A DNA stretch of 34,884 nucleotides from a virus. Position 1 is the first letter of the stretch; each line of letters begins with the position of its first letter. This document shows positions 4,261 through 34,048 of the stretch, in pieces. The DNA lies in the IMG/VR virus record IMGVR_UViG_3300045988_174060, positions 1 through 34,884 of that record, one strand, 5' to 3'. Both the position numbers and the translations under genes were made by a program. Below the pieces are notes generated by a model, which was given only the letters and a program-made list of their open reading frames with translations, was not told the DNA's origin and did not search any database.

Positions 4261-4302
4261 ATCAGGCTGCCGTAGTCCGCGACGGATAGTGGCAGCCACC
4301 CC

Positions 4303-4453: not shown

Positions 4454-4518
4454 CTACATCCATTCTCATAATGTTAAGGCGTGTCATGGTTCGTGACGGA
4501 TAGTGCGCGCCGCCCTTT

Positions 4519-4626: not shown

Positions 4627-4640
4627 CGAAGCTTGGTTTT

Positions 4641-4797: not shown

Positions 4798-4800
4798 CCT

Positions 4801-7710
4801 ATGATAAGAATAGAAAACCTATATCGCGCCACCAACGAGGGGCTCGATATCATACTGCACTACTACCCGCAGGCACGCGAGGTGGTGGGCTCCAAAAACA
4901 AGTTCAGGGTGCGCCCCGCCGACAAAACGCCCTCGGCCTGCCTCTACCTGTGCCACACACAGGGGGGCGAGGGTGTGTGGAAGGTGACCGACTTCGGCGA
5001 TGAGGGCCACGCGCAAAGCCCGCTCGACATCTGCATGAGGGAGGAGGGCATCGAACGCCCCTACGAGGCAGTGCTCAAGCTGGCCGCCATGTTCGACGTG
5101 CGTGACGAGCTGAACCGCTCCATCAACAAGCCCGACATCAAGCACCGCCCCGCCACGGCCGACGAGAAGGACGGCACACGCATCTTTGCCCTGCTTGAGC
5201 GCATACCCGAGAGCCACCTCAAAGTGCTTGGCCCGAGGGTGACGCACGCCGACACCGATGCGCTGCACTGGTACGAGGCCGAGTATGTGGGCTATGTCAA
5301 GAACCGCGAGGTGACGCTCAAGTACTCCACCGAGCACTACCCCATCTTCATGCGCGAGTGTGTGGTGGAGGAGGGCGGCGGCGAAAAGGCCGAAGTAAAG
5401 TTTTACAAAATATATGAGCCATTGAACCCCGACAAGGGTTTTCGCTTCAGCTATCACCCCGCAGGGGGCAAGCCCAAGGCCTACATCAACGGCCTTCACG
5501 AGCTGAAAGCCCTGTGGCGCAAGCTGAACGCCGACGAGGAAGCGGCCTTTTACCGCGACCCCGCCAACGAGGGCAAGCCCTACCGGGAGCAAAAGCTGAA
5601 GGAGGCCTTCATTTGTTCGGGCGAGCGCGACTCGCTGTGCTGCCACTCCATGGGCTACAGCCCGCTGTGGTTCAACTCCGAAACGTACCGCCTGAGCGAG
5701 GCAGAGTACAAGGAGGTGATGAAGTATGTGGAGGTGCTCTACAACATTCCCGACCTCGACAGCACAGGCGTGCGCAAGGGGCGCGAGCTTGCGCTGCGCT
5801 TCATAGACATACACACCATGTGGCTGCCGCAGAGCCTCACGGGCTACCGCGACAACCGCGGCCGCCCGCGCAAGGACCTGCGCGACTGGCAGGAGCTGCG
5901 CGACAGGCGGAGCGACTTTGCGGGCCTGATGGCACTGGCCATGCCTGCCAAGTTCTGGACGGAGCGCACCAACCGCAAAACGGGGGCCGTGACGTACGAC
6001 ATCGACACGGAGTGCCTGTACAACTTCCTCCGGCTGAACGGCTTTTACACCCTGCACGACGACAACATAAAGGAGGCGCGCTACATACACGTGCAAGGCA
6101 ACATTGTGCGCGAGGTGAAGGCCAAGGACCTGCGCCGCTTCATAAGCGAGTGGGCCGAGGAGCGCTGCCTGCCGCGCCCCGTGCGCAACCTCATACACAA
6201 CTCGCCAAGGCTGAGCGACTCAGCCCTCGACAACATGCGCGAGGTGACGCTCGACTTTACCAACTACACGCCCACCACGCAGCTCTTTTTCTTCCCGGGC
6301 AAAACGATTGAGGCCACCCCCACGGGCCTTGTGGAGCACTCAGGCGGGGAAGGTCTTGACCGCTATGTGTGGCAGGAGAATGTGCTGGACCACCGCGTCA
6401 CGCTCATGCCCCCCATGTTTGAGGTGGAGCGCAGCGTCACGCCCACGGGCGAGGCGCGCTTCGGGGTGAAGGTGAAGGACGCCGAGAGCAGCCCCCTGTT
6501 TGGCTACGTAATCAACACGAGCCGCGTGCACTGGCGCAAGGAGCTGGAGTACAACTTTGCCGAGCGCGATGCCTCGGAGGCCGAAGCCTACCACCGCGCC
6601 CACAAGTTCTGCATCGACGGCGAGGGCCTCACGCCCGACGAGCGGCACGAGCAGGAGCAGAACCTTGTCAGCAAACTCTTCACCATAGGCTACATGCTGC
6701 ACCACTACAAAAGCCCCTCGCGGGCGTGGGCGCCAATGGCCATGGACAACAAGATTGGCGAGGACGGCGAGTGCAACGGCCGCAGCGGCAAGTCGTTCCT
6801 GTTCAAGGCCCTCAGCCTCTTTATGAAAACGGTGAAGCTGAGCGGCCGCAACGCCAAGTTGATGGACAACCCGCACGTGTTCGACCAAGTGACGCAGCAC
6901 ACCGACTTTGTGCTGGTTGACGACTGCGACCGCCACCTTGACACGGGGGCATTTTACGACCTCATAACCTCGGACATGACCGTCAACCCCAAGAACAACC
7001 AGAGCTACACCATACCCTTTGAGCAAAGCCCGAAGTTTGGCTTTACCACCAACTATGTGCCGCGCGACTTCAGCCCCAGCACCGAGGCGCGCCTGCTTTA
7101 CCTTGTGTTCAGCGACTACTACCACCAGCGCACCGAGGGCAACGACTACCTTGAGAGCCGCAGCATACGCGACGACTTCGGGCGCGACCTCATAAGCTCC
7201 TCGTACAAGGAGGAGGATTGGAACGCGGACATAAACTTCTTTATGCAGTGCTGCCAGTTCTACCTGTCGATGTGCCAGGAGAGCGTCAAGCCCATGCCGC
7301 CCATGGGCAACATATTAAAGCGCAAGTTCAAGGCCGACATGGGCACCAACTTTGAGGAATGGGCCAACGTGTACTTTGCCGAGGAGGGCGACAACCTCGA
7401 CACCTTCATCGTTCGCCGCGAGGCCTACGACGCCTTTATAGACGATGCCAAGGTGAACAAGAATTTTTACACCATGAACAAGTTCACCAAGGCCTTGCGC
7501 TCCTTTGCCGCCCTCTGCCCCTACGTGTACGACTACAACCCCGCCGACTTGCTCAACTCGCAGGGCCGCATCTCGCGCCGCATCGACGGCAAGAGCGAGG
7601 ACATGATATATCTGCGCTCCACCAAGAGCCAGGCCAACCGCGAAAGCCTCGACACGGGGGCGCACCTCGACCCCGGGGCGGGATTTGTGCCGGACGAGAG
7701 CGAAGGCTAA
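4801..7710 (+). CDS. DNA primase / SF3 (P4-alpha or D5-like) helicase
   Basis: 969 aa. Central Toprim-like segment FICSGERDSLCCHSMGYSPLWFNSE. Walker A NGRSGKSF and Walker B FVLVDDCD. Confidence 0.8.
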   Translation: MIRIENLYRATNEGLDIILHYYPQAREVVGSKNKFRVRPADKTPSACLYLCHTQGGEGVWKVTDFGDEGHAQSPLDICMREEGIERPYEAVLKLAAMFDVRDELNRSINKPDIKHRPATADEKDGTRIFALLERIPESHLKVLGPRVTHADTDALHWYEAEYVGYVKNREVTLKYSTEHYPIFMRECVVEEGGGEKAEVKFYKIYEPLNPDKGFRFSYHPAGGKPKAYINGLHELKALWRKLNADEEAAFYRDPANEGKPYREQKLKEAFICSGERDSLCCHSMGYSPLWFNSETYRLSEAEYKEVMKYVEVLYNIPDLDSTGVRKGRELALRFIDIHTMWLPQSLTGYRDNRGRPRKDLRDWQELRDRRSDFAGLMALAMPAKFWTERTNRKTGAVTYDIDTECLYNFLRLNGFYTLHDDNIKEARYIHVQGNIVREVKAKDLRRFISEWAEERCLPRPVRNLIHNSPRLSDSALDNMREVTLDFTNYTPTTQLFFFPGKTIEATPTGLVEHSGGEGLDRYVWQENVLDHRVTLMPPMFEVERSVTPTGEARFGVKVKDAESSPLFGYVINTSRVHWRKELEYNFAERDASEAEAYHRAHKFCIDGEGLTPDERHEQEQNLVSKLFTIGYMLHHYKSPSRAWAPMAMDNKIGEDGECNGRSGKSFLFKALSLFMKTVKLSGRNAKLMDNPHVFDQVTQHTDFVLVDDCDRHLDTGAFYDLITSDMTVNPKNNQSYTIPFEQSPKFGFTTNYVPRDFSPSTEARLLYLVFSDYYHQRTEGNDYLESRSIRDDFGRDLISSSYKEEDWNADINFFMQCCQFYLSMCQESVKPMPPMGNILKRKFKADMGTNFEEWANVYFAEEGDNLDTFIVRREAYDAFIDDAKVNKNFYTMNKFTKALRSFAALCPYVYDYNPADLLNSQGRISRRIDGKSEDMIYLRSTKSQANRESLDTGAHLDPGAGFVPDESEG

Positions 7711-8315: not shown

Positions 8316-8322
8316 CACGCCG

Positions 8323-8430
8323 TTTCAAGTTTGAAGTTTTAAGGTTATGAGGTTATAAAGTCACCTCTGCGAGTTCAACCACTGACCCCGACCTCTTAAA
8401 TCTTCAAATTCCCCCCCCAACTTTTCAACT
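8323..8430 (+). repeat. Composite intergenic element, copy c1 (dialect B arms, GAGTTC core)
   Basis: Left arm GGTTATGAGGTTATAAAGT. Core ACCTCTGCGAGTTCAAC at 8363-8379. Confidence 0.8.
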
Positions 8431-8566
8431 TTACTACATAGGGGGATAGAAAAAACAACATAGGGCGGTAGAAAAAACTATCCCCCTATGTCGTTAAAAC
8501 GATATCGACTGAGAGAAAAAACGCGTCGCCTATACAATTAAAACGCGTCGCCTATGTAGTAAAGTT
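8427..8566. repeat. Nested inverted- and direct-repeat cluster (CATAGG-type motifs)
   Basis: Outer inverted repeat AACTTTACTACATAGG (8427-8442) with CCTATGTAGTAAAGTT (8551-8566). Inner inverted repeat CATAGGGGGATAG (8437-8449) with CTATCCCCCTATG (8478-8490). A related CATAGGGCGGTAG lies at 8459-8471. ACGCGTCGCCTAT occurs twice as a direct repeat, starting at 8521 and at 8543. Confidence 0.75.
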
Positions 8567-8686
8567 GAGAAGTTTATAAGTTGAAAAGCTTATGATGTCA
8601 CCTCAGCTATTTCAACTACTTAAACCGACCTCTTAACTCTTCAACTTTTCAACTTTACCCATAAACTTATAAACTCCAAAATTCCC
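8561..8686 (+). repeat. Composite intergenic element, copy c2 (degenerate core)
   Basis: Left arm AAAGTTGAGAAGTTTATAAGTTGAAAAGC. Degenerate core ACCTCAGCTATTTCAAC at 8600-8616. Right arm CCTCTTAACTCTTCAACTTTTCAAC. Confidence 0.7.
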
Positions 8687-9706: not shown

Positions 9707-9762
9707 AGATACTACAAATATGTTATACAAATATTTGGCCATATAACATATTTGTAGTATCT
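9707..9762. promoter_or_regulatory. Perfect 21-bp inverted repeat overlapping the hicA promoter; candidate operator
   Basis: AGATACTACAAATATGTTATA (9707-9727) pairs with TATAACATATTTGTAGTATCT (9742-9762) across a 14-nt spacer. Confidence 0.7.
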
Positions 9763-9765
9763 TTG
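9734..9765 (+). promoter_or_regulatory. Canonical Bacteroidota promoter
   Basis: TTTG at 9734-9737, then 20 nt, then TATCTTTG at 9758-9765. Confidence 0.65.
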
Positions 9766-9809
9766 TATTGTGAAAAGAGAACTAAAGTATAACCCCTAAA
9801 ACCAACTTG

Positions 9810-9992
9810 ATGAAATGGAATGAACTAAAGAAACAAGCACTGCAACATGGATTTGAACTCAGCCGCCACGGCAAGGAGCACGACATCTATGTAAACCACG
9901 CGAAAGGCATAACCATACAAATTGAAAGACATGGGAACGCCGAAGTAAAAAAAGGCCTGTACTTCAAACTAAAAAAGCAAATAGGCTTTTAA
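9810..9992 (+). CDS. hicA: HicA-family mRNA-interferase toxin
   Basis: 60 aa. MKWNELKKQALQHGFELSRHGKEHDIYVN...IERHGNAEVKKGLYFKLKKQIGF fits the HicA/YcfA pattern. AT-rich. Confidence 0.75.
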   Translation: MKWNELKKQALQHGFELSRHGKEHDIYVNHAKGITIQIERHGNAEVKKGLYFKLKKQIGF

Positions 9993-10066
9993 CCTACACC
10001 AGAGCAAGGGAGGGCAACCCCCCACCCTCCCTTGCCTGCCACATTATAAAGGAAAGGTACAAAAAA

Positions 10067-10623: not shown

Positions 10624-10918
10624 ATCGTACTTTTTTTTTGTAATTTTGTATCACACTTTGTATCAAACAAAGAAAAGTATTGAATATCAATAAAATAAGT
10701 AAGAAAAAAAGGTGATACAAAACCCGATACAATTCTGATACAATTTTTTCCCGAAATGTATCACCCCCCGTTTTGTATCAGCCCCCGCCCCCCTGATACA
10801 ATTTTATTTTGCCCGATACAAAAATGTATCAGCCAAAGAAGAAAAATGTATCACTTGAAAATCAGATAGTTACGCTACAAAATTACGCTGATACAAAATT
10901 ACAGAAAAAAAGTACGAA
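10624..10918. repeat. AT-rich array of 12 TGTATCA/TGATACA heptamers bounded by 29-bp inverted repeats
   Basis: TGTATCA starts at 10647, 10659, 10757, 10774, 10825 and 10847. (T/C)GATACA starts at 10713, 10725, 10736, 10794, 10814 and 10889. The flanking inverted repeat 10624-10653 versus 10889-10917 has one internal mismatch. Confidence 0.85.
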
Positions 10919-11012
10919 ATTCGACCTCAGCCAGATTACAGGAAAAACACACCGCACGCACTACGCCACGAACCAAGCCCGAAAAACGACAAAAAGAACA
11001 AGGGTAAAAGTT

Positions 11013-11130: not shown

Positions 11131-11643
11131 ATGAAAGGCCTAACCGTATACCTCCGTCTTGAGCCATACCTGCGCCAATGGCTTACCCACCACTTTGGCA
11201 GCCCCGTGCGCTTCCCGCCACGCTCCTACGAGAATATGCTCCTCCACCGCCTGCTCTCACGCCCCGCAGCTGGAGCCACCACCGCCACGGGGCCAACCTG
11301 CCCGCCCGACAGCGTGGCAATAGTCATAACCGACCACGCCCAGCGGCGGCCCGAATACTGGTGCCACCTCTCACGCAGGGCACAGGCCGAAATGGCACGC
11401 GCCGTGGCCAACCTCTTTTGCCTCGCCCTGTGGAGCGAGTGCGTGTGCCTCATACACAGCGGCACACTCAACCGCGGCATCGACTCATGGTGTCAGGCCA
11501 ACGGCATTGCACTCATCTACCGCGAGGGCGTAAGGCAGAAGTTTTACCGCATGCGGCGCCTTTATGCGCAGAATGGCGTAATTCTTGGCAAAAAATATAC
11601 CCACGCAAGTGGTAATAATCACACACACACCACCCACCCATGA
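11131..11643 (+). CDS. Hypothetical protein in the small-terminase position
   Basis: 170 aa. Its stop overlaps the terL start as ATGA. No motif was recognised, so the TerS role rests on position only. Confidence 0.6.
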   Translation: MKGLTVYLRLEPYLRQWLTHHFGSPVRFPPRSYENMLLHRLLSRPAAGATTATGPTCPPDSVAIVITDHAQRRPEYWCHLSRRAQAEMARAVANLFCLALWSECVCLIHSGTLNRGIDSWCQANGIALIYREGVRQKFYRMRRLYAQNGVILGKKYTHASGNNHTHTTHP

Positions 11644-13262
11644 GCACCCCCACACCCCAACAAATATACATGAACCGCATGCAGCGCGAAGTGTGCGCCA
11701 TCGACGCCCACACCAACGTGATAGTGGCCGGCCGAGGCACAGGCAAAAGCATGCTGCACGCCTGGATCAACCTGCGCAACATGCAGGCCATGCCACGCAG
11801 CACCACCGCCTTTGTGTGCCCCACAGCCATCAGGGCAAAGACCAACACGCTGCCCTCAATGTTCGAGCACTGGGAGAAATGGGGCTACCGCCGCGGCCTG
11901 CACTGGGACATAGGCCACCGTCCGCCACGCTCGCTCGACTGGCCCGCGCCACTCGTCACACCCGACAACTGGGAGAACATCATCACCTTCTATAACGGTG
12001 CCATTGGCCAGATAGTGAGCCAGGACCGCGTGGGCACCTCCAACTCAAAGAGCTTTGACTACATAGACATTGACGAAGCCAAGTTTGTAGACTACGAGCG
12101 GCTGAAGGACGAAACCTTCCCCGCCAACCGCGGGCAGCAGCGCGAGTTTGGCGACCTGCCCTTCCACCACGGCATGCTCATCACCTCCGACATGCCCGTG
12201 TCGCGGCGCGGCTCATGGTTCATGCGCTATGCCGACCAGTGCGACACCGAACTCATAAGCACCATTGAGGCCCTGGTGGCCGACGAGCAACAAACCATGC
12301 AGCGCATGGCCCAGGGCGACACCACCCCCTACCTGCCCGAGCGCATCAAGCAAACGCGCCGCCTGCTCGCCTCGCTCCGCCGCCGCGCCACACTCTACCG
12401 CACCTACTCCAGCCTTACCAACATCGAAGTGCTGGGCGAGGCATGGGTGCGACAGATGCGGCGCGACCTCACCCCCATGGTGTTCCGCACCTCCATACTG
12501 TGCCGCCCCATCGAGGTGCTAAAGGACGGCTTCTACTCCTCAATGCGCCCCTCACACCGCTACACCTCCACCGACTACCATGTGGTCGACGCCCTGGGCT
12601 ACGACTTCAAGGCACTCACCCACATGGCCGGCACATGCAAGGCCGATGCCGACATCAACCGCGGCCACCCCCTGTGCATAGCCTTCGACTTTAACAACAA
12701 CATCAACTGGCTCGTGGCAGGCCAGCCCGACGAGGACCGCCGCCGCCTCAATGTGCTAAAGTCATTCTACGTAAAGTACGAGCGCAAGCTGCCCGCCCTC
12801 ATAGCCGACTTCTGCCAGTACTACGACCCGCTGCCCATGCACGAGGTCGTGTTCTACTACGACTCCACCGCCCTCGGCTCCAACTACGCCGTCAACGATC
12901 AGGACTTCCGGTGGGTCATCACACACGAGCTGCAGCTGCACGGCTGGCGCGTGCGCCCCGTCTACATAGGCGCCCCCATGCGCCACCTCGAAAAGTACCA
13001 GCTCATCAACCGCGGCTTCGACGGCAAGGCCCGCCTCATGCCATTCTTCAACGAGCCCAACAACCCCGACCTGCTCATCTCAGTACAAACTGCCGGCGTG
13101 TACAACGAAAAGAAGGACAAGCGACGCGAAAAGCTGGCCGAGACCGACGAGGACCGACTCGAAAACCGCACCGACGGCTCCGACGCCTTCGACACCTTAT
13201 ATATAGGCTGCGAACGTTTCCCCCAGCAGCCCGTGCAGCTCGTCGTCACTGGCGGCGGCTGA
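11640..13262 (+). CDS. terL: Terminase large subunit
   Basis: 540 aa. Walker A VAGRGTGKSM and Walker B FDYIDIDEAKF, with a C-terminal nuclease-sized domain. Confidence 0.8.
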   Translation: MSTPTPQQIYMNRMQREVCAIDAHTNVIVAGRGTGKSMLHAWINLRNMQAMPRSTTAFVCPTAIRAKTNTLPSMFEHWEKWGYRRGLHWDIGHRPPRSLDWPAPLVTPDNWENIITFYNGAIGQIVSQDRVGTSNSKSFDYIDIDEAKFVDYERLKDETFPANRGQQREFGDLPFHHGMLITSDMPVSRRGSWFMRYADQCDTELISTIEALVADEQQTMQRMAQGDTTPYLPERIKQTRRLLASLRRRATLYRTYSSLTNIEVLGEAWVRQMRRDLTPMVFRTSILCRPIEVLKDGFYSSMRPSHRYTSTDYHVVDALGYDFKALTHMAGTCKADADINRGHPLCIAFDFNNNINWLVAGQPDEDRRRLNVLKSFYVKYERKLPALIADFCQYYDPLPMHEVVFYYDSTALGSNYAVNDQDFRWVITHELQLHGWRVRPVYIGAPMRHLEKYQLINRGFDGKARLMPFFNEPNNPDLLISVQTAGVYNEKKDKRREKLAETDEDRLENRTDGSDAFDTLYIGCERFPQQPVQLVVTGGG

Positions 13263-13308: not shown

Positions 13309-13339
13309 TTTGATAATAAGTATATTATTATTATCTTTG
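13309..13339 (+). promoter_or_regulatory. Canonical Bacteroidota promoter
   Basis: TTTG at 13309-13312, then 19 nt, then TATCTTTG at 13332-13339, in a very AT-rich spacer. Confidence 0.6.
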
Positions 13340-13376
13340 CAGTGTAATAAAAACAAAGAAAGGAGGTGTACAATGA

Positions 13377-13514
13377 ATGACTAAGAAAGAAAAAGTAACA
13401 GCAGCCAAAGCGATAGTAATGCTTGCAGAGTTGGCCAACACAACAAAGCACGACTACATCAAAGCCGAAGCATTAAGACTTATCGAGGAACTTGCTGAAG
13501 CAATCGAAAGCTAA
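13377..13514 (+). CDS. 45-aa mini-protein (below the ORF-track cutoff)
   Basis: Encodes MTKKEKVTAAKAIVMLAELANTTKHDYIKAEALRLIEELAEAIES. AGGAGG lies 11 nt upstream. The ORF sits between a promoter and a hairpin. Confidence 0.45.
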   Translation: MTKKEKVTAAKAIVMLAELANTTKHDYIKAEALRLIEELAEAIES

Positions 13515-13520
13515 AACAAA

Positions 13521-13546
13521 GGGCCCGCACAAGGGCGGGCCCATTT
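13521..13546 (+). terminator. GC hairpin (terminator or attenuator)
   Basis: GGGCCCGC-ACAAGG-GCGGGCCC followed by ATTTT. Confidence 0.55.
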
Positions 13547-13561: not shown

Positions 13562-13870
13562 ATGACACACACCGAAGCAACAGAAAAAGCGCGCCAGCTA
13601 CTATCCGCCGAAAGCGAGGGCGCAGTATGGCTCGCCATGATAGACACGAGCGAGTTTCTCAACCTCTCGGGCGTGGCCCGAAAATACTTCGACCGCTCGG
13701 GCAACTGGCTGCAGCAGCGCTTGCACGGGTACAAGGTTAACGGCAAGCCCGCCACCTTCAAGCCCACAGAGCTGCAACAACTCAGCCAGGCCATGCGCCA
13801 CATGGCCAAAGTGCTCGCCACCTCGGCCGACAACATAGACAAGGCCACACACACAACTCTTAACTCTTAG
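13562..13870 (+). CDS. Conserved small protein, paralog of 34277-34519 (possibly DUF5053-like; family name from memory only)
   Basis: 102 aa. The segment VARKYFDRSGNWLQQRLHGYKVNGKPATFKPTELQQLSQAMRHMAKVLATSADNI aligns by eye with VANQYFHKSSSWLYHKLNGIDGNGGTGGFTPAEREQLRQSLRDLAQRINHCADNI, sharing about 23 of 55 identities. Confidence 0.65.
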   Translation: MTHTEATEKARQLLSAESEGAVWLAMIDTSEFLNLSGVARKYFDRSGNWLQQRLHGYKVNGKPATFKPTELQQLSQAMRHMAKVLATSADNIDKATHTTLNS

Positions 13871-13909: not shown

Positions 13910-13947
13910 GCCCGCCAGCCTCACCCCGAGGCCGGCGGGCTTTTTTT
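13910..13947 (+). terminator. Intrinsic terminator
   Basis: GCCCGCCAGCC-TCACCCCGA-GGCCGGCGGGC followed by T7. Confidence 0.8.
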
Positions 13948-14232
13948 CGTCCTTTCGCCGCCACGCCGCCACACTTTACCGGCATATACCGCCCGCGCGC
14001 CCCCCTCCAGCCGGGCGCGGGGCGTAGGGCATTGGGGGGTCGAAAAGCTGACAAAGCGCACCATTTCAGAGGCCGCCAGGCCCTGATGCCCACTAAAATG
14101 GGACAAACTGCCGCCCCGTGTGCCGCAAGCGCGCAAGGAGCGGCCCAAAGGCGGGCGGGTGTCTTTTACAAGCCTATATATATAGCTGTACATTTGCCCA
14201 CAACTTTTAACCATTTAACACACACGCTACTT

Positions 14233-15369
14233 ATGCCACGCACTTACCACATCGACATCGACTCCTACATTGGCTACCCCATAAGCAAGGGGTACATAAA
14301 GAGCAAGCTGCAGCCCATGAAGGGCAAGCCCTGCAACGTGCGCGTCAACTCCTACGGGGGCGACGTGCAGACGGCCCTCGACATCAGACAACAATTCATT
14401 GACCACGGACAGGTCACCGCCTACATCATAGGCATGACGGCCAGCGCGGCCACCATACTGGCCATGGGTGCGCGCAAGGTGGTGATGAGCCGCTACGCGC
14501 TGATGCTTGTGCACCCCTGTTCGGCCGCCGTGAGCACTTGGGGCTACTATAACAAGGAGGAACTTGCCAAGGCCATTGAGGGGCTGCGCAAGGCTCAGAC
14601 CGACCTCAAGACGCTCGACCGCGTGGTGGCCTCGATATATGCCGCCAAGGTGGGCAACGGCAATGTCGACAGCATGGCGGCCCTCATGCATGAGGCGCGA
14701 TGGATAGGTGCCGAGGAGGCGCTGCGCCTTGGCCTCATTGACGAGATTGACCCCGACGAAGAGCAGCCCGACCCCGCCAAGGAGCCCATGACCGACGCAC
14801 AGCGCGAGCACATTGTGGCATGCGGGCTGCCTGTGCCAACTTTCGGCATGGCGGCTGGAAGCATGGCGGCCGAAAGCACTGAGGCTGGAAGCACTGAGGG
14901 CACTGCCGCCGCCACCATCACCACCACGGCCGAACAGCAAATGCGTAAGTCGATAGGCGAGGCGGTGCGCGATTTTTTTGAAACCCTTTTTGCGCGCGCC
15001 GCCAAGCCATCTTGCGCCGCCAAGCCGCAGGGCGCGGCCGCTGCCACCACCGACAGCAAACCTCATAACACAAACAACACCATAATGAACGAACAAACCA
15101 TCACCCCCGCCACCCTGTGCGCCAAGCTCGGCGTGGCACACATCACCGCCACCGACGACAAGGTGACATTCACCACCGAGCAGATTGACGCGCTCGAAAA
15201 GGTGATCAAGGCTCTGGACGATGAAAAGAATGAGGCCGAAGCCAAGCTCAACGCCACCGACGGCGACACTACAAACTCTGCCAAGCCAAGCACCGAGGCC
15301 GACGAAGGCACAGCACTGCCGGGTGCCGAGGCATGCGACTTTTACCGCAAGTACGGCTCCCTCATTTAA
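14233..15369 (+). CDS. ClpP-family (S14) prohead protease fused to an Ala/Thr/Glu-rich scaffold-like C-terminal half
   Basis: 378 aa from the ATG at 14233 (MPRTYHIDIDSY...). Ser motif GMTASAATIL and His motif MLVHPCS. The C-terminal half is low-complexity with a coiled-coil segment (EQIDALEKVIKALDDEKNEAEAKL). Confidence 0.8.
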   Translation: MPRTYHIDIDSYIGYPISKGYIKSKLQPMKGKPCNVRVNSYGGDVQTALDIRQQFIDHGQVTAYIIGMTASAATILAMGARKVVMSRYALMLVHPCSAAVSTWGYYNKEELAKAIEGLRKAQTDLKTLDRVVASIYAAKVGNGNVDSMAALMHEARWIGAEEALRLGLIDEIDPDEEQPDPAKEPMTDAQREHIVACGLPVPTFGMAAGSMAAESTEAGSTEGTAAATITTTAEQQMRKSIGEAVRDFFETLFARAAKPSCAAKPQGAAAATTDSKPHNTNNTIMNEQTITPATLCAKLGVAHITATDDKVTFTTEQIDALEKVIKALDDEKNEAEAKLNATDGDTTNSAKPSTEADEGTALPGAEACDFYRKYGSLI

Positions 15370-15414
15370 CCAACTCATCAACTCTTAAACTCTTAAACTT
15401 CTAAACTCTACACA
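15370..15414 (+). repeat. Composite intergenic element, right arm only (copy f)
   Basis: CAACTCATCAACTCTTAAACTCTTAAACTTCTAAACTC. It is G-free and abuts the ATG at 15415. Confidence 0.7.
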
Positions 15415-16548: not shown

Positions 16549-17172
16549 ATGGCAGTACAAACCCCCACAACCACCCCCTGCGCCAACGGCGCACCCTTCA
16601 GCAGTCTGCGCTTCTGCGCCGGCCAGCGCGTTATACCCGGCATTCGCACCGCGGTATACTACACAGCAAAGGAAAACATCACGGCATGGCCCACCCTGCC
16701 CCAGCCCACCGACAAGGACGTGACACTGGCCAAACTCGCCACCTACGACGGCAACTTCACACTAAAGGCCGACAAGAAGTGGCAGCGCATTGACCTCGTA
16801 ACAAATAAAGGCAACGTTGAATGGGAAACTCAGGGCGAGCGCCCCTCGTGCACATTCCTCAACAAACTTACAGCCAGCCACCCCGGCACGGCCGAGGAGG
16901 CGGCAGGTTTTTGCTCGGTGGCGCAGAACGCCGACCTCGTGTTCCTGGTGCAGCAGCGCGACGGCAAGTTCCGCGTGCTGGGCAACGAAATGTTCGAGAC
17001 GGTGGTGAAACCCAAAGGCTCGCTCGGCGAGGGCACAAGCACCAACGCGAGCACCGACATCGAAATCGAAGCCACCGACGTGGTGCCGGCTCCCTTCTAC
17101 CCCGGCGAAATCGACACCGCCGACGACGGCAAGATTAGCGGCGCCACGGGCAAGCCGGTGGTGGCAGCGTAG
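16549..17172 (+). CDS. Structural-module hypothetical protein
   Basis: 207-aa ORF between two repeat elements. Confidence 0.6.
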   Translation: MAVQTPTTTPCANGAPFSSLRFCAGQRVIPGIRTAVYYTAKENITAWPTLPQPTDKDVTLAKLATYDGNFTLKADKKWQRIDLVTNKGNVEWETQGERPSCTFLNKLTASHPGTAEEAAGFCSVAQNADLVFLVQQRDGKFRVLGNEMFETVVKPKGSLGEGTSTNASTDIEIEATDVVPAPFYPGEIDTADDGKISGATGKPVVAA

Positions 17173-17295
17173 CTCTGAGTTCTGAGTTTTAAGGTTATGA
17201 GGTTATAAAGTCACCTCTGCGAGTTCGATAGCACAAAGTAACTTTATAACCTTATAACCTCAAAACTCAAAACTAAACTTATAAACTTAAACACT
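17173..17295 (+). repeat. Composite intergenic element, copy h (dialect B)
   Basis: Left arm GAGTTCTGAGTTTTAAGGTTATGAGGTTATAAAGT. Core ACCTCTGCGAGTTCGAT at 17213-17229. Right arm AACTTTATAACCTTATAACCTCAAAACTC. Confidence 0.85.
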
Positions 17296-17829
17296 ATGCT
17301 CGACCCCGAATTTACCCAACAACTGCAGGCGTACCTTGCCAAGCCGTCAGATGAACGCGACGTGAGGCAAGGGGCCCTGCTCTTGTTACGCATCAACTCC
17401 AACCGCTACCTCTACGCCTGTGCCTGTGCGGCCCCCGCGCGCTACGCCGACACCATAGCCTACGAACTGAACAAGCACCTGCGCATACGCCTCGACGGAC
17501 TGACGCGGCAGGACGTGGCCACCATGGAGCAAGAGGCGCTGCCGCTCATTGAGCAGAGCATCAGCCAAGGCGCGCCCGTCATCAGCACCGACGCCGACCA
17601 CCCCAAGGGCCAGTACCGCGGCCGCCGCCCCGACCACGACAAGCTGCCCGACCACATCAAGAAGCTGTACGACGACAACGGCGAGCTTTACTTCAAGATG
17701 AAGCAGGCCTTTGAAACGCTCAAGACCATGGCCGACAAGGAGCCGTGCGACCGCTACGAACTGCTCAAACTGCTCAAAAAGGCTGATGAGAGGTACAGGC
17801 TGAATTGGGAGGCATACGATAAGTTCTGA
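17296..17829 (+). CDS. Structural-module hypothetical protein
   Basis: 177-aa ORF. Confidence 0.6.
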   Translation: MLDPEFTQQLQAYLAKPSDERDVRQGALLLLRINSNRYLYACACAAPARYADTIAYELNKHLRIRLDGLTRQDVATMEQEALPLIEQSISQGAPVISTDADHPKGQYRGRRPDHDKLPDHIKKLYDDNGELYFKMKQAFETLKTMADKEPCDRYELLKLLKKADERYRLNWEAYDKF

Positions 17830-18139
17830 GTTTGGCTTAGTTTGGAGTTCTAAGGTTATGAGGTTATAAAGTAACCTTTAAGAGTTGGGCTCGCAGAGGT
17901 AACTTTATAACCTCATAACCTCAAAACTCCAAACTAAAAGAACCTCAAAACTCCGAACTAAAAGAACCTCAAAGCTCCAACCTCTTAAAGGTAACTTTAT
18001 AACCTCATAACCTCAGAACTCCAAACTAAAAGAACCTCAAAACTCCGAACTAAAAGAACCTCAAAGCTCCAACCTTTTAAAGGTAACTTTATAACCTCAT
18101 AACCTCAGAACTCAAAACTAAACCCCTCCAAACTTTACG
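17830..18139 (-). repeat. Composite intergenic element, copy i: core inverted and right arm expanded
   Basis: GCTCGCAGAGGT at 17889-17900 is the reverse complement of ACCTCTGCGAGC. This is the only inverted core. At 310 bp it is the second-longest backbone spacer carrying the element (8316-8686 is 371 bp). Confidence 0.85.
17898..18125 (+). repeat. Tandem repeat, 92-bp unit, about 2.5 copies
   Basis: Units start at 17898, 17990 and 18082. The two full units differ at 2 positions. Each unit begins GGTAACTTTATAACCTCATAACCTCA and contains an internal duplication of about 22 bp (AACTCCRAACTAAAAGAACCTCAAA). Confidence 0.9.
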
Positions 18140-18709
18140 ATGACCGACACCCTCGCCGACCGCGCGCAACGCTACCTCATGGCCTCTGCCGAAGAGATGC
18201 AGAAGGCAGGCCTGCCCTCATACATGCAGGCCCGCTTGTTCCGCCTCAGGGAGATGTATGCCTACTGGCTGCAAAACCCCCGCATGGTGGACAAGGACAT
18301 TGTGGGCGTGCTGCGCCAGAAGTACGGCCTTGGCCTGTCGCAAGCCTATGAGGACGTGCGCTGCATCAAGATATGCCTGGGCAACCTCGGGCGCATCACC
18401 AAGGACTACGACCGCTGGCTATTCCGCGAACGGTGCGAGGAGGGCTGGCAGATGGCACGCGAGGCGGGCGACGCCAAAGCCTTTGCCGCTGTCACGGCCA
18501 CCTACCTCAAGGGCACGCAGCTCGACAAGGAGGACTCAGCCGCCCCCGACTATTCGAGCATCACCCCGCAGCAGTTCGTCATATCGGCCGACCCCGCCGT
18601 GGCTGGCTTCAAGGTGGTGCCCGGCATCATCGAGAAGGCAAAGCGGCTCGAGGCGCGCTACGTGCAGGAGTTTGAGGAGGTTGACAACCACACCCCACCC
18701 ACACCATGA
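18140..18709 (+). CDS. Structural-module hypothetical protein
   Basis: 189-aa ORF. Confidence 0.6.
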   Translation: MTDTLADRAQRYLMASAEEMQKAGLPSYMQARLFRLREMYAYWLQNPRMVDKDIVGVLRQKYGLGLSQAYEDVRCIKICLGNLGRITKDYDRWLFRERCEEGWQMAREAGDAKAFAAVTATYLKGTQLDKEDSAAPDYSSITPQQFVISADPAVAGFKVVPGIIEKAKRLEARYVQEFEEVDNHTPPTP

Positions 18710-19116
18710 CACGCTACATCACCCACATAAGCCTTGCCCCCGCCGCCAGCATGGGCCAGCTCACCCTCGGCCCCGACGGGCACACGGCCGCCCTCAACAC
18801 CAAGGGCGCACAGTGGCACACCGTGCCCACCACGGGCCTTGCGGCCATGGAGGTGAACGACGAGGTGGCCGACGGCCGCCACACATGCTCGGCCAAGCTC
18901 ACCGCCACGCTGTGCGGCCGCTACACCCCCATGGCCGGCCCTGTGGCCGTGCTGCTCACCTGTGCCGACGGCACACGCCTGCTCCTGGGTACGGGCGAAA
19001 GGCCCATGCCCGCCGTCACGCTGCCCGACACGCTGCCCGACAAGGCGGCCGAACGCTCGGCGCAAACGATAACAGTCAGCTACGCAGCAAGGCCGCTGGC
19101 CTTGATGGGTAGCTGA
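18706..19116 (+). CDS. Structural-module hypothetical protein
   Basis: 136 aa. ATGA overlap with the upstream gene. Confidence 0.55.
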   Translation: MTRYITHISLAPAASMGQLTLGPDGHTAALNTKGAQWHTVPTTGLAAMEVNDEVADGRHTCSAKLTATLCGRYTPMAGPVAVLLTCADGTRLLLGTGERPMPAVTLPDTLPDKAAERSAQTITVSYAARPLALMGS

Positions 19117-19118
19117 CA

Positions 19119-19261
19119 AGTTGAAAAGTTTATAAGTTTATGAGGTTACCTCTGCTTGTCAAACTCATAAAAGCGCCCTCTTAACTTCTCAACTCCTCAA
19201 CTTTTCAACTCAGAAAACCGACCTCATAAACTCCTCAACTTCTAAACTTCTCAACTTTATA
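19119..19261 (+). repeat. Composite intergenic element, copy j (TTGTCA)
   Basis: Core ACCTCTGCTTGTCAAAC at 19148-19164. Confidence 0.85.
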
Positions 19262-20632
19262 ATGACGAACTTCGACCAACTACGCGACACTGCCGCCACC
19301 ATACGCGACGAAAAGGCACGCTACGCCAACACCGCCAACCGTGTGGGCACACTGCTCTACAACATGTGCCTGGCCATGGCCGACACCGACGCCGCCGCAT
19401 CGGCCGACCACCCCATAACGCAGGGCCTCGGCCAGTGGCTCACCACCCACGACAACCTGACCACCCTCGACGCCCTGAACGCCGCGCTCGACGCCATGAA
19501 CGTGGACTCCCCCCAGGGCCTGCACCGCTTCAAGTGCCTCGACATACCGGTGCTCACCTACTTCGGCGTGCTCGTGAAGGACACCAAGCGCTATGTGCAG
19601 ATAGCGGTGGGGGCTTTCACCCTCAACACGCATGGCACCGCGCTGGCCTCGATCAACGACACAGCATCAACGCGCAACGTGATAGTGCGCTACTTTAACG
19701 GCACCAAGTGGCAGGCATGGCAGCCCCTGCAGCCGCAAAAGCAAACGTCGTACTCGGGCTACAACGGCAACTATGTATACTCCGAAGGCACGACCGACAA
19801 CACGCGCACCATACTGAGCAGCAAAATGTGGACTTATACACACGGCGACCGCAACTTGTTTTTACGCTTCAAGCACTGGGGCGCAGAGAACAACACTGAG
19901 ACAAGCCAATACAGTCAAGTGCTGCTATGCTATTTGGTGAACAGGAACCAAGACGGGCTGATGGATAAGTATGTGTTTGCCCGCATTCTGAATAACAATC
20001 TTGCAGAAGGGCTGAGCACTACGGACAGCGTAATTGTTAACTACACAAACTTTGCCGAGAGTGGCAACAAGCAACTTGTACTCACCAAGGCCACAAGCGC
20101 CAAGGCGGGCGTCATGACGGCCGCACAGGCCACGCAGCTGAGTGCGCTGGACGAAGGCATAAAGCAAGTGAGCCTGAACGGCGGCAAAAAGTGGGAGTTC
20201 CGCACCCTCGGGGGCGAAAAGGTGTTGGAAACGCTCTCCGACGTAATGGGCGAGGAGGTAAGCCACTCCGACTTCGAGAACGCCGAACTCGCCACCTACA
20301 TGGAGGGCAACCCCATCGAGGTGTACCAAACGCAGGGTGCCTACGGTGTGCCTGCGCAAAAGTACATGATATGGTTCGGCCACCGCATCAAGGGCGCCAG
20401 CGGCACACTGCAGCGCTACGACTTCAAGACCATTGCCGGCATGGAGCCGCTCGCGTTGTACTACAGAGTGCCACAGGGCACCGCGATGCACTTCTGGACT
20501 CTGACCAATGGCCATGCCATTGCCTACAAAGGCTCGGGGGGCCTCACGGCGCAACTGAGTACCGCGCCCTACATCATGAGCACCAACGACAAGGCGGTGC
20601 TCGAAAAGTTGAGGGGGCAGTTGAAAAGTTGA
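19262..20632 (+). CDS. Structural-module hypothetical protein
   Basis: 456-aa ORF. The last codons (KLRGQLKS-stop) are encoded by left-arm repeat units. Confidence 0.65.
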   Translation: MTNFDQLRDTAATIRDEKARYANTANRVGTLLYNMCLAMADTDAAASADHPITQGLGQWLTTHDNLTTLDALNAALDAMNVDSPQGLHRFKCLDIPVLTYFGVLVKDTKRYVQIAVGAFTLNTHGTALASINDTASTRNVIVRYFNGTKWQAWQPLQPQKQTSYSGYNGNYVYSEGTTDNTRTILSSKMWTYTHGDRNLFLRFKHWGAENNTETSQYSQVLLCYLVNRNQDGLMDKYVFARILNNNLAEGLSTTDSVIVNYTNFAESGNKQLVLTKATSAKAGVMTAAQATQLSALDEGIKQVSLNGGKKWEFRTLGGEKVLETLSDVMGEEVSHSDFENAELATYMEGNPIEVYQTQGAYGVPAQKYMIWFGHRIKGASGTLQRYDFKTIAGMEPLALYYRVPQGTAMHFWTLTNGHAIAYKGSGGLTAQLSTAPYIMSTNDKAVLEKLRGQLKS

Positions 20633-20977: not shown

Positions 20978-21117
20978 AAAGTTTATGAGTTGAAAAGTTA
21001 AGAGGTTACCTCTGCTTGCCCAACTCTTAAAAGCGTCCTCTTCACTTGTCAACTTATAAACTCTTAAAAGCGACCTCTTAACTCATAAACTTATAAACTT
21101 ATAAACTTTTCCATTCC
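20970..21117 (+). repeat. Composite intergenic element, copy l (TTGCCC)
   Basis: The holin stop TGA lies inside GTTGAAAAG. Core ACCTCTGCTTGCCCAAC at 21008-21024. Confidence 0.85.
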
Positions 21118-21540
21118 ATGCTTGACCCCCGACAAATCAAATACCTCATAGTGCACTGCACCGCCACCGCCCGCGGCAAGGACTTCACCGCCGCCGACGT
21201 GGACCGCTGGCACCGCCAGCAGGGGTGGGACATGATAGGCTACCACTACCTGGTGCGACTCGACGGCACCATAGAGCCCGGCCGCCCCGAAACCATGCAG
21301 GGCGCACACTGCAAGGGCTACAACCGCCAGAGCCTGGGCATATGCTACGTGGGAGGGCTCGACGCCCAGGGCCGCCGCCCCGAGGACACCCGCACCACGG
21401 CACAGGTGGCAGCCCTTGGCGCACTGCTCAAACGGCTGCGCCGCAAGTACCCCAAGGCCCGCATCGTGGGCCACCACAACCTTAACCCCGGCAAGGCGTG
21501 CCCATCGTTCGACGCCCGTGCCGAATATGCCGACCTATGA
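21118..21540 (+). CDS. N-acetylmuramoyl-L-alanine amidase (Amidase_2/PGRP, T7-lysozyme-like endolysin)
   Basis: 140 aa. Motifs IVHCTAT, GYHY and GHHNL..GKACPSF match the Zn-ligand pattern H...H...C of the T7 lysozyme family. Confidence 0.9.
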   Translation: MLDPRQIKYLIVHCTATARGKDFTAADVDRWHRQQGWDMIGYHYLVRLDGTIEPGRPETMQGAHCKGYNRQSLGICYVGGLDAQGRRPEDTRTTAQVAALGALLKRLRRKYPKARIVGHHNLNPGKACPSFDARAEYADL

Positions 21541-27806: not shown

Positions 27807-30800
27807 ATGAATAACAACGACATCAAGACCGTAACCCTCACCATCAACTCGGAGCAGGCACAACGCAAGCTCGACGACATCAACCGCCGGCTGGAGCAGG
27901 CACGCCTCAAGCGGCAGGAGGCCTTTGAGCGCGGCGACGGCAAGGCTTTGCAAGCCTACGCAAAGGAGATTAAAAGCCTCGAGACGCAAGCCACAAGGCT
28001 CTCATCACGTGCACAGACCGTGGAGAAGGTGCTGCGCTCCCTCGACTCGGCCACACCCAAGGAACTGAAAGCCACCATAAAGGAAATAAACAGGGAGCTG
28101 AACAGCGGCAACGTGGAGCGAGGCTCTGAACAGTGGCAGGCGCTCACACGCTCGCTGCAAGAGGCTAACAAGGAACTACAAAAGATAAAGGACGAGCAAA
28201 AGGCGGCAAACGACAGCTCTTTCATTACCAAAATTGGCCAAACGTGGTCGGGCGTGGCCGTAGTGTTCGACAGCATCGCCAGCAAATTCAGCGCCCTCAA
28301 GCAGGCCATGGCCGAATACGTGAACGAATATGCCGACATGGCAGAGCACATGAGCGGGGTGAAAAAGTATACGGGGCTGGCCAAGGAGGAGGTGGACGCA
28401 CTCAACGAGAGCTTCAAGCAGATGGACACACGCACATCGCGAGAGAAACTCAACGACCTGGCAGCCGATGCGGGCCGGCTGGGCATTCAGAGCCGCGACG
28501 CTGTGCTCGACTTTGTGGAGGCTGCCGACCAAATAAACACCGCACTTGGCGAGGACCTTGGCGAGGACGCTGTAAAGAACATTGGCAAACTGGCGCAAAT
28601 GTTTGGCACCGACAAGAGCATGGGGCTCAAGCAGGCCATGCTCTCGACGGCCTCAGTCATTAACGAACTGGCACAAAGCTCGTCGGCAAGCGAGGGCTAT
28701 ATAATGGAGTTCACCAACCGACTGGCGGGGGTTGGCAATCAGGCGGGCATGACGCAGGCGCAACTCATGGGCCTGGCATCTGTCATGGACCAGAACCAAG
28801 TGAACGTGGAGAAGGGGGCCACAGCCTTGCAAAACGTGCTCACGGCCCTGTTTGCTGAACCCGAAAAAATGGCCAAGGCCGCGGGGCTGGAGGTGAAACA
28901 GTTTACCGAACTGCTCTCTACCGATGCCAATGCCGCCCTGCTACAGTTCCTCGGCGCGCTGAACCAAGCCGGGGGCATGGACAAACTCGCGCCACTGCTT
29001 GACGAAATGAACCTCAGCGGCGCAGGCGTCACGCAAACGCTCTCCACACTGGCCGGCAAACTCTCTGACGTGAAAAGCGCGCAAGAGCAAGCCGCCGTGG
29101 CCTTTAACCAAGGCACCTCATGCACCAACGAGGCTAACCAGGCCAACCACACAGCACAGGCGGAACTCGAAAAGGCGCAAAAACGCATGAAGGACTTGCG
29201 CGTGGAACTTGGCGAACGCCTCTACCCCATCTACACCGCCACCATCAACGGCGTGCTCAACTTTGTGGCGGCGGTACGCACTGCCATTACATTCGTGGCA
29301 TCACACGCCAAGGCCATCACCACCGCGGTAGTGGCCATAAGGGTGTTCACCACCGCGCTCGCGCTGCAAGTGTACTGGACCAAAATATGCGCCACCGCCA
29401 CCGCGGCACTCTCCGCCGCAAAGGAGGCCTATACCACCGTGACCACTGCCGCCACCGCAGCCATGACGGCATTTAACGTGGCGGTGAAGAGTAACGGCTT
29501 CAGCGCCATCATTTCGCTCATTCTCTCAGCCGTGGCAGCACTCGGCACGTGGCTCCTCTTGACCGACTCCGACACCGAGGCCACCAAAGCTAACACCAAG
29601 GCTAAAAAGGATAACGCACAGGCCAGCGATGAGCAACGACGAAAACAAGAATTGCTCAAAAGCATACAGAAGGACTCGGCCGACAACGCCAAGGCCGAAC
29701 GCGCACAAATCGAGAGGCTCACCAACGTCATTCACGACAACTCGGCAAGCATCGACTCCCGACGTAAAGCCATTGCCAAACTGCAAAGCATCGTGCCGGG
29801 CTACCATGCCTCACTCTCGTCAAGCGGCACACTCGTCGAAAAGAACACCGAGGCCATAGGCAAGTATATCGAACAACTTGACAGGCTGGCTCTGGCTCAA
29901 GCACTCTTCAAAAAAATACAGGAGAACGCCGAGAAGCAATTCAACATTGACCGAGCCATCACATCATGGCAAAACGCTGTGGCCTACCGCGACAAACAAA
30001 TGCAGAAGAACGGACACTTGAGCCAGCCTTCAGTGCATGTGAATACTGCCACCGACGACCCAACCATGCGCACAACCGTAATCGAAACCAACGAAACACG
30101 CATCAACGACCAAAACATACAACGACACAACAAGGCGCGCCTAAACTGGTGGCGGCTACAGGACAAACTCAACAAAAAGGAAAATCAATTCATATTCGAC
30201 TACGCCAAAAGCCACAGAGTACAAGGCGAACTGGCCAAAATAATAACCAACGGAGGAACCACACCCACCACACCAGCCATCACGCCCGTAACCACTACCA
30301 ACAACGGCGGAGGAGGTAACAGCAGCGGGGGAAACAGCAGCGGAAATGCCACACACACCCCCAAAAACACCACCGACCCCGTAAAGGCACAACTCAAAGC
30401 ACTGGAGGACGCTGCCAGCCAACAACGGCTCATAGCACGCACCAACTACGAGAACGGCATTATCGACCACCGAGAATACTCGGCACAACTGCTCGACATT
30501 GACCAAAAACTATACACCGACCAACGAAACCTATACACCGAGAACTCGCCCGAATGGGTGAAACTCGAACAAAAACGCTACGACGCCACAGCGGCCGTGC
30601 GAAAAAACAACCACGCATGGAGCATACACGAACTCGACATCGAGGAACAAGACGAACTCAACACCGAAAAACAAAACTATCTGGACGGCATCACCAACGA
30701 GGAACAATATCAAAGCAACAAAACAGAGATAAGGCTCAGATACCTCAAACGACGCGCCAACCTGAGCAAACTCTACGGACAAGACGAGGAGGCCAAAAAG

Positions 30801-34025: not shown

Positions 34026-34048
34026 CATTGTCAAAAACAAAAAACAAT

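Follow-up and report, generated by a model that had tools for sequence, protein, structure and literature searches.

The intergenic spacer at positions 17830-18139 of IMG/VR virus record IMGVR_UViG_3300045988_174060 lies between two prophage genes and carries about two and a half copies of a 92-bp repeat beside an inverted sequence box. The window is the whole record, 34,884 nt, and all positions refer to it. This spacer is probably one allele of a modular intergenic spacer that joins G-free leaders to a masking hairpin, with the copy number of the repeat setting translation of the genes downstream. We infer this translational role, and the effect on expression that comes with it, from the anatomy of the spacer, the layout of its family along the prophage, recurrent flips of the box, a copy-number polymorphism and predicted pairing states. 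The ingredients are of known kinds (an intergenic hairpin repeat, a loop inversion and a variable-number tandem repeat), but literature searches on intergenic repeats and hairpins in Prevotella or Bacteroidetes phages returned no account of the whole layout.

Anatomy of the spacer

The spacer starts with a left array, continues with a central box made of two halves (box A, which holds the core, and box B) and ends with right modules that lead to the next start codon. Its parts lie as follows.

17830-17872, + strand: left array (the left arm); G/T-rich and poor in C, with 2 C among its 43 nt; GGTTATGAGGTTATAAAGT family
17873-17900, - strand: central box, flipped; B' AACCTTTAAGAGTTGG at 17873-17888 and core A' GCTCGCAGAGGT at 17889-17900
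17898-17989, + strand: 92-bp unit 1; G-poor right array at 17901-17935 (partner P1), 24-nt sub-repeats
17990-18081, + strand: 92-bp unit 2; 17977-18029 is the full 53-nt partner P2; one unit's worth is absent from a 218-nt allele described below
18082-18122, + strand: partial unit 3; 18069-18121 is the full partner P3, closest to the start codon
18123-18139, + strand: end of the leader; CCCCTCC at 18123-18129, 10-16 nt before the ATG, and no Shine-Dalgarno sequence

Tandem Repeats Finder reports a 92-bp period with 2.5 copies and 97% matches at 17897-18122 (score 431); nested within it, at 17917-18072, is a 24-bp period repeated 6.7 times. Unit 1 (17898-17989) and unit 2 (17990-18081), both complete, are 98% identical, with exactly two differences at unit positions 27 (A/G) and 87 (C/T), and the third copy continues for about 41 nt. 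This is the repeat that the initial annotation, made from the letters alone, had described as about 2.5 near-identical units with two differences.

The same annotation held that the left arm is complementary to the start of each unit. When its reverse complement is set against the three unit starts, only 3, 2 and 3 of 36 positions differ, which bears the claim out; the quoted string, however, lies at 17841-17876 and not at about 17850-17885. Because the flipped box half at 17873-17888 (AACCTTTAAGAGTTGG) also complements CCAACCTYTTAAAGGT at each unit junction, bar one unpaired C, the left pairing segment extends to 53 nt, 17836-17888. Two segments, 17977-18029 and 18069-18121, can pair with it in full, and 17898-17935 can do so in part. 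At the junction of the full units, a forward box-B-like end, CCAACCTCTTAAAGGT, starts in unit 1 (17977-17989) and continues to 17992 in unit 2.

Searches for conventional signals gave little. A scan of 17000-19400 found no intrinsic terminator on the + strand within the spacer, where its matches lie only on the minus strand, inside the repeat units. No Bacteroidetes sigma-A promoter (TTTG at -33 and TAnnTTTG at -7) occurs in 17830-18139 or in any like spacer. With the whole window searched against Rfam 15 at E <= 1, no family reached its gathering threshold; the matches below threshold are microRNA-precursor models, for example let-7 at 17846-17928 with 33 bits against a threshold of 53.5, and simply reflect long hairpins.

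A spacer family along the prophage

Inspection of all non-coding gaps of the window revealed 14 junctions, from 4.7 to 26.4 kb, at which the parts follow one and the same order. Each element begins at a stop codon, followed or overlapped by a C-poor array of 8-mers that is itself rich in stop codons. In the window these arrays fall into two families, AGTTGAAA/AGTTTAAG and GGTTATGA/GGTTATAA. In the middle stands a central box of about 28 nt, in which box A, ACCTCTGC(GAGT or TTGC), is joined to box B, YCAACYNWTAAAAGCGACC (..CAACTCTTAAAAGCGACC). One or more G-free 8-mer arrays follow, largely complementary to the first array and often each preceded by another box-B-like piece, and the element closes with a CCCTCC-like motif and the ATG.

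Thirteen cores run forward, at about 4706, 7755, 8363, 8599, 9278, 11045, 16416, 17213, 19148, 20647, 21008, 23291 and 26306, a count that takes in CTGCTTGY variants and one degenerate copy. The sole exact core match is GCTCGCAGAGGT at 17889-17900, the single copy that lies on the minus strand, and the reverse complement of its box, ACCTCTGCGAGCCCAACTCTTAAAGGTT, agrees with the forward boxes of the other 13 spacers.

This wider view changes two points of the initial annotation. The junction had been presented as a boundary between gene blocks, a special status that is not supported, since the same type of spacer stands at most junctions between 4.7 and 26.4 kb and the flanking genes cannot be annotated. 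Nor are multiple right partners peculiar to it, as right modules number two or more in about half of the 14 spacers. Further duplications identified by Tandem Repeats Finder measure 46 bp (19162-19256) and 37 bp (21022-21099), and in some multi-module spacers the minimum-energy fold places the left array on the second right module. The 92-bp repeat is thus the longest and youngest case of the usual state, in which one arm faces several partners.

The strongest signal in the family is a strand-dependent bias in composition: the sequence leading into the start codon is G-free. At 15 start codons the preceding 50 nt, 750 nt in all, include 15 G (2%), whereas G makes up 25% of the window; C accounts for 10% of the 40 nt that follow 11 stop codons, compared with 31%. 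Without G, a leader has neither G-C nor G-U pairs open to it, and it holds no AUG, GUG or UUG. One such leader, at 15370-15414, stands without hairpin, left array or box.

A stop-codon function for the left arrays was considered and set aside. Six of 11 spacers have left arrays with stops in all three frames, where 2.8 would be expected (p about 0.04), a weak signal that is largely a by-product of composition.

Two features of the spacers are recorded here in their own right. CCCTCC or CCTCC lies 5-16 nt upstream of the ATGs at 11131, 16549, 18140, 20726 and 23429, at the Shine-Dalgarno position; the motif is the anti-Shine-Dalgarno sequence itself, not its complement, and it also parts successive right modules. 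The 371-nt spacer at 8316-8686 contains two family elements and, in addition, unrelated repeats (ACATAGGGCGATAGAAAAAACA twice and AAAACGCGTCGCCTAT twice). Its first element, with the core at 8363, has left and right arms from different families and therefore only a weak hairpin, of -19 kcal/mol.

The same composition could be read in terms of Rho-dependent polarity, with the G-free arrays as rut sites, one of them masked by the left array, and copy number altering read-through. A C-rich, G-poor stretch is the textbook form of a rut site, and the leaders hold 32% C and 2% G over 50-240 nt. This reading also likens the CTCTTAA-containing box B to the boxA of lambda nut sites and rrn operons: box B contains CTCTTAAAA, as in lambda boxA followed by its spacer, CGCUCUUAAAAA. 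That likeness, however, follows trivially from the AACTCTTA repeat unit, and other array families lack CTCTTAA. Moreover, 14 strong Rho entry sites in one late operon would be self-defeating without an antiterminator, and none was found in the window. Rho-dependent polarity is therefore very unlikely to explain the arrays.

Copy-number polymorphism

Exact-sequence look-ups of the two flanking proteins in gut metagenome assemblies of the European Nucleotide Archive (ENA) returned 18 loci, 17 of them with the spacer. Its alleles, drawn from at least 12 gut metagenome samples, are listed here by length, unit number and the bases at unit positions 27...87.

310 nt, 2.5 units, A...C then G...T: the window and three further samples
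310 nt, 2.5 units with unit 2 identical to unit 1, A...C then A...C: L064
218 nt, 1.5 units, A...T only: eight samples

ERZ2664105, ERZ963429 and ERZ2661062 are among the assemblies with the 310-nt form, and ERZ2660830, ERZ960526 and ERZ961501 among those with the 218-nt form. Contigs L048 and L049 show no substitution against the window in 6.6 kb, so that the 92-bp gap is the sole difference, and the remaining near-identical contigs compared have at most one substitution over 4-6.6 kb. The recent slippage suggested by the initial annotation is thereby supported, in that contigs with 100% identity elsewhere over 4-6.6 kb are exactly one unit apart in copy number. Units that are near identical, lie head to tail and vary in number among close genomes, here 1.5 against 2.5, are the mark of a variable-number tandem repeat. 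Eight independent assemblies, produced by two assemblers, all show the A...T chimera as the one unit retained in the 218-nt allele, and this is the expected product of an unequal crossover between positions 27 and 87.

Short-read assemblers might have manufactured either the 2.5-copy or the 1.5-copy form. The repeat, at 226 nt, exceeds typical k-mers, SPAdes contig coverage is about 3x, and two contigs, L061 and L063, break within the repeat. Yet the 310-nt form comes from four further samples and the 218-nt form from eight, by MEGAHIT (k127) and SPAdes alike, with both sizes present in both sequencing projects and from both assemblers. Random collapsing of assembly bubbles would be expected to mix the variants, but the short form is invariably A...T, and a third allele, in L064, has another variant pattern. 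An artefact is thus extremely improbable. Because eight assemblies agree on the same chimeric unit, the polymorphism is regarded as real; proof can come only from repeat-spanning reads.

Predicted folding and alternative pairing

Structure prediction gives the hairpin at 17830-17945 a folding energy of -61.6 kcal/mol (z = -12.5) and the whole spacer -91.7 kcal/mol (z = -9.9), and no shuffled sequence folded as low in either case. The proposal that one left arm has three mutually exclusive partners holds in the sense that all three predicted duplexes with the left segment are very stable: -63.0 kcal/mol with the adjacent P1, -76.9 with the middle P2 and -70.2 with the start-proximal P3.

Partition-function calculations separate the two alleles. 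In the 310-nt allele the left arm sits on the middle copy (30.9 of 32 expected pairs), and in the 218-nt allele it sits on the start-proximal copy, the only full one there (29.5 pairs). The predicted probability of being unpaired is 0.65 in the longer allele and 0.25 in the shorter one at positions -30 to -1, and 0.54 against 0.07 at positions -60 to -31. According to the model, the extra unit would thus serve as a decoy and leave the leader of 18140-18709 free. P1 could itself be displaced if the forward box-B piece invaded the P1 hairpin at its apical end.

Recurrent flips of the central box

Homologues of the downstream gene are present in 14 viral contigs. Flips in relatives were scored with gene direction taken from the adenine-thymine skew of the flanks, open reading frame (ORF) length being too noisy in a GC-rich genome. 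The initial annotation had singled out the inverted core as the only one of its kind. It is the only one among the 14 of the window, but flips recur in relatives, where 11 of 59 scorable boxes are inverted, at no fewer than six junctions, with the arms unchanged. At the junction that matches window position 23291, L006 and L009 carry the exact reverse complement of box A plus box B, set between unchanged GTTAAG/CTTAAC arm ends. Most flipped elements, including that of the window, have a further forward box-B-like piece and array module downstream.

A flip of this kind would be explained as a hairpin-loop inversion, in which recombination or template switching between complementary hairpin arms turns the box around. 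Loop inversions of 4-50 bp within hairpins are a known class in plastid non-coding DNA (PMC12371153). There they are recurrent and independent (Kelchner and Wendel 1996, reviewed in PMC12371153), which matches the flips of the 28-nt box in the window and in relatives; the setting now is a phage genome, and forward boxes are favoured about 4:1. This excess suggests that box orientation is not fully neutral.

Box orientation could also be a programmed switch, with the box, or the segment between the 53-nt inverted repeats, flipping often within the population. The box is indeed flanked by inverted repeats, and both orientations exist across the family. In addition, at one contig end (L063:2972-3054, ERZ961065), the left arm and the flipped box half meet the reverse complement of the unit interior at the junction AAGAGGTTGGAGCTTTGAGG, which would be expected if 17889-17976 had inverted between the 53-nt repeats. 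This is a lone contig tip, however, and could be a chimeric read. The same flipped orientation is present in each of the 17 near-identical contigs that cross the core, which argues that the box is no active switch in this lineage; moreover, the box has only 28 nt and the integrase is the only recombinase found in the window. A programmed switch is accordingly most improbable.

Proposed role in translation

Two ordinary mutational events would account for the present allele: a flip of the box and a tandem duplication of a box-B-like piece with its G-free array. The duplication would have come about by slippage or unequal crossing-over and yielded 2.5 units of 92 bp, still variable between 1.5 and 2.5.

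Bacteroidetes lack Shine-Dalgarno sequences, and initiation in them needs an unstructured region in which extra AUGs are depleted (PMC6847099). The spacers resemble those initiation regions in being G-depleted and AUG-free before the start codon and in having no Shine-Dalgarno sequence. Because the G-free leaders are closed to G-C and G-U pairing and free of AUG, and Bacteroidetes initiation proceeds without Shine-Dalgarno pairing, we infer that the right arrays are ribosome landing pads. They would serve as unstructured, start-codon-free leaders on which Bacteroidetes ribosomes load and reach the first AUG, and slippage would be a cheap means of lengthening them. A further parallel is the omega leader of tobacco mosaic virus, which is G-free and carries 8-nt direct repeats. 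Unlike either precedent, the leaders here are fast-changing tandem arrays matched by a complementary array after the preceding stop codon, and their part in translation is the proposed one.

In the proposed mechanism, a hairpin of 35-53 bp would let the C-poor array tie up one G-free module, and once the box had flipped, a full copy of box B plus array would be the best partner for the left segment. With 2.5 units the best full copy would be the middle one, a decoy that leaves the start-proximal leader free; with 1.5 units the only full copy would be start-proximal, and the leader would be sequestered. Copy number is thereby predicted to set translation of the downstream gene pair, 18140-19116. 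More generally, the left-array hairpin may mask the leader, stabilise or process the transcript, or couple it to termination of the upstream gene, and it may partly be a by-product of inverted duplication.

Several points weigh against this mechanism. In principle the 218-nt allele might be a short-read assembly that has collapsed; the contigs are covered about 3x. Equilibrium folding leaves aside co-transcriptional kinetics and ribosomes, and the adjacent partner P1, which forms first during transcription, is itself worth -61.6 kcal/mol. Arm mismatches show no wobble bias (14 of G.U type, 26 of A.C type and 31 transversions), and the antisense strand folds better than the sense strand in 14 of 14 spacers by one test and in 12 of 14 by another. 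Left arms pair about equally well with the right arms of other spacers (permutation p = 0.07), so that arm-specific co-evolution within the main family is rejected, and left-arm changes in the L032/L035/L036 series are uncompensated. In L016, a relative with four array families, some spacers have left and right arrays of different families that are unable to pair. Mismatch, folding and pairing tests thus leave the hairpins unsupported as selected sense-strand RNA structures, and the mechanism gives the conserved central box no reader.

Turnover among relatives

The six closest relatives (97-98% amino acid identity) have a homologous junction with a forward box, another arm family and another number of right modules. 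Over 18-20 kb of relatives, coding columns differ by about 7%, and about half of the spacer columns are unalignable. Among L004-L009, the upstream gene varies in its stop codon and the 2-5 codons before it, at the junction matching window 17820-17840. These codons and the stop derive from the first array unit (AGT TGA), which indicates that spacer replacement extends into the 3' end of the gene.

The polarity of the arms is constant throughout. On either gene strand, the G/T-rich arm invariably comes after a stop codon and the C/A-rich arm invariably before a start codon, and in relatives with genes on both strands the G-poor side tracks the gene strand. Arms of the GGTTATGAGG type are present in 30 stretches from other viral contigs, and the leader families themselves recur in many viral contigs that are unrelated. 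Exact-pattern scans for the spacer 17830-18139 in IMG/VR and Joint Genome Institute (JGI) metagenome contigs returned no match, so that only the exact-protein searches of ENA assemblies recovered the phage. A 14-mer core scan of IMG/VR returned at least 118 stretches from samples of many kinds, which are taken to be mostly chance, the pattern being so short.

Wholesale replacement of this kind is also what a selfish palindromic repeat might produce. Under that reading a MITE (miniature inverted-repeat transposable element), a REPIN or a Correia-like element has colonised the junctions, and the flip and the expansion are neutral decay with no role in expression. The elements are palindromic, multi-copy and strictly intergenic, with complementary arms in 14 copies that amount to terminal inverted repeats. 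Identical arms recur in many unrelated viral contigs, and entire spacers have been replaced between relatives whose flanking genes are about 93% identical. The arms show neither compensatory changes nor wobble bias, and Bacteroidales offer a precedent in BrickBuilt, a MITE that carries a minisatellite (PMC4596501). On the other hand, the window holds no transposase or RAYT-like gene, the arms never stand in opposite polarity to the gene, and the element occupies nearly every spaced junction and stands at the present one in all relatives, with no pattern of presence and absence. G-free arrays also occur alone directly before start codons (15370-15414), and a G content of 2% across 750 nt of leaders is difficult to account for unless selection acts at the transcript level. 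A purely selfish origin is therefore considered unlikely.

Another alternative places the signal in the DNA, with the 12-nt core and the 8-bp arrays as operator-like or iteron-like binding sites comparable to the stoperators of Cluster A mycobacteriophages. The core is an asymmetric 12-mer in 14 copies, all intergenic and 13 of them co-oriented with transcription, as stoperators are; it is kept across different arm families, tolerates flipped copies and comes without RNA-type covariation. However, the immunity and early-promoter region at 1.5-4.6 kb, the expected place for an operator, contains no core with up to two mismatches, and the 8-bp period of the arrays is out of phase with the DNA helix. 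The array families of related phages are wholly different (AGTTGAAA, GGTTATGA, GAGTTAAC and AATGTGCA), but the C-poor to G-free polarity is kept, which points to composition and not to a shared binding sequence. Protein binding to DNA is on these grounds distinctly improbable as the function of the spacers.

More distant relatives present another arrangement. L010-L014 and L017 (74% amino acid identity) have only purine-rich tandem arrays after the stop codon, GGGCTAGAGGA, GGTGGTATTTGG and GGTGTGTTTGCAAG, and a strong AAGGAGG before the ATG (for example L011:9910-10000, 13929-14030 and 5802-6479). The pattern suggests a host or ribosome population that uses Shine-Dalgarno pairing.

Comparison with known systems

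Phage T7 offers a parallel in its RNase III hairpins (R0.3 ... R18.5), about ten or more long imperfect intergenic hairpins that are spaced along a polycistronic transcript and share sequence by common origin. Predicted stems among the family spacers have 26-47 pairs and -19 to -62 kcal/mol, as expected of RNase III-type hairpins. Unlike those of T7, the arms here are tandem 8-mer arrays of 35-53 bp that keep strictly to C-poor to G-free polarity, close relatives differ by their wholesale replacement, and they pair without a wobble or covariation signature.

REP/BIME and REPIN elements of enterobacteria and pseudomonads and Correia elements of Neisseria are likewise multi-copy, palindromic, intergenic, co-transcribed, modular and variable in copy number. 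The present family differs in being phage-borne, in its constant polarity to the gene and its presence at nearly every junction, and in that no RAYT or transposase was found. BrickBuilt of Porphyromonas gingivalis (PMC4596501), compared by description only, is also intergenic, with inverted-repeat ends, a variable tandem repeat and a suspected influence on expression, but it is chromosomal and its 23-nt repeat has promoter activity.

Variable-number tandem repeats of contingency loci share with this junction near-identical units whose number varies between otherwise identical genomes. Here the unit is 92 bp long and non-coding, and the proposed effect would act by competition in RNA pairing, not by frame shifts or promoter spacing. 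A stronger form of the proposal is doubtful: gain and loss of the unit would be a reversible, high-rate translation switch of the downstream pair, a heritable decoy dial, and the arrays would be an undescribed way for phages whose hosts do without Shine-Dalgarno pairing to build and tune landing pads between genes.

Flanking genes and prophage context

The spacer separates the following genes, taken from the list of ORFs.

17296-17829, + strand: upstream gene, 177 aa, stop codon TGA at 17827-17829
18140-18709, + strand: downstream gene, 189 aa, its end overlapping the start of the next gene, 18706-19116

Neither protein has a match in Pfam, PHROGs, NCBIfam or PADLOC. An AlphaFold model of the downstream protein (predicted local distance difference test score, pLDDT, 80.8) has an all-alpha fold. 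A Foldseek search of this model, the downstream gene being the one searched by fold, found no match in the PDB at E <= 0.001, and the sole match in BFVD is a 99%-identical uncharacterised protein of "Siphoviridae sp. ct13O11".

A type III toxin-antitoxin system, with a ToxI-like array before a ToxN/AbiQ gene, was considered and rejected. The downstream protein has no PADLOC match, its all-alpha fold lacks a ToxN/Kid-like barrel, and like arrays precede most genes. No transposase occurs among the window proteins (Pfam, PHROGs), and PADLOC found no defence-system protein nearby.

The ends of the window show what kind of element it is. Bases 1-49 equal 34836-34884, a 49-bp direct repeat that forms the 3' end of a tRNA gene and represents the attachment-site core; since it stands at both ends, the window is a whole integrated prophage. 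Contigs with relatives of the prophage are labelled uncultured Prevotella, and it is taken to be a Prevotella-type siphophage. The large terminase subunit of the nearest cultured phage is only 33% identical, so that no annotated model phage is on hand. The principal other features are these.

245-1537: Bacteroidetes-type tyrosine integrase
2354-2767: CI-like helix-turn-helix protein
9734-10066, 13309-13530 and 33994-34230: accessory genes ("morons") with canonical promoter and GC-hairpin/T-run terminator
11131-11643: candidate small terminase subunit, 170 aa, preceding the large subunit; no family match
11640-13262: large terminase subunit
14032-15369: ClpP-type head protease
21118-21540: amidase endolysin
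27807-31973: tape measure protein

Bacteroidetes-type promoters of the form TTTG-N17-21-TAnnTTTG number four in the window against 0.45 expected, at 2275, 9734, 13309 and 33994. Three of the four stand upstream of the small accessory genes, which end in ordinary GC-rich hairpins followed by T-runs. The first accessory gene, at 9810-9992, encodes a HicA toxin (Pfam E = 2.3e-8), and DUF5053 occurs in the gene at 13562-13870.

Two other repeat-rich regions were observed. The early region 4130-4800 contains a tRNA-Gly(GCC) gene at 4535-4625, a second tRNA- or tmRNA-like 3' end (GGGTTCGACTCCCGCCGCCTGC, twice) and duplicated GATAGGCCGCTAAACGGATAGGCGGCA segments, all just upstream of one family spacer and of a 969-aa gene. 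About 12 copies of TGATACA/TGTATCA cluster at about 10690-11000, upstream of the 170-aa gene before the large terminase subunit, and at the matching position two relatives, L016 and L011, show other short motifs in clusters. Such clusters could be sites for packaging, late activation or a replication origin.

Biological significance

How Bacteroidetes choose start sites without Shine-Dalgarno pairing is an open question, and these phages may offer a natural allele series for it: G-free, AUG-free leaders of varied length and family, with and without a masking array, including one junction that differs by a single 92-bp module. If copy number alters expression, the junction would give a gut phage a simple contingency locus based on RNA pairing, and it would be useful as a part for engineering expression in Prevotella and Bacteroides. 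If it does not, the spacers still record fast, repeat-driven turnover confined to gene junctions, and this turnover bears on phage mosaicism and on the assembly and comparison of gut viromes.

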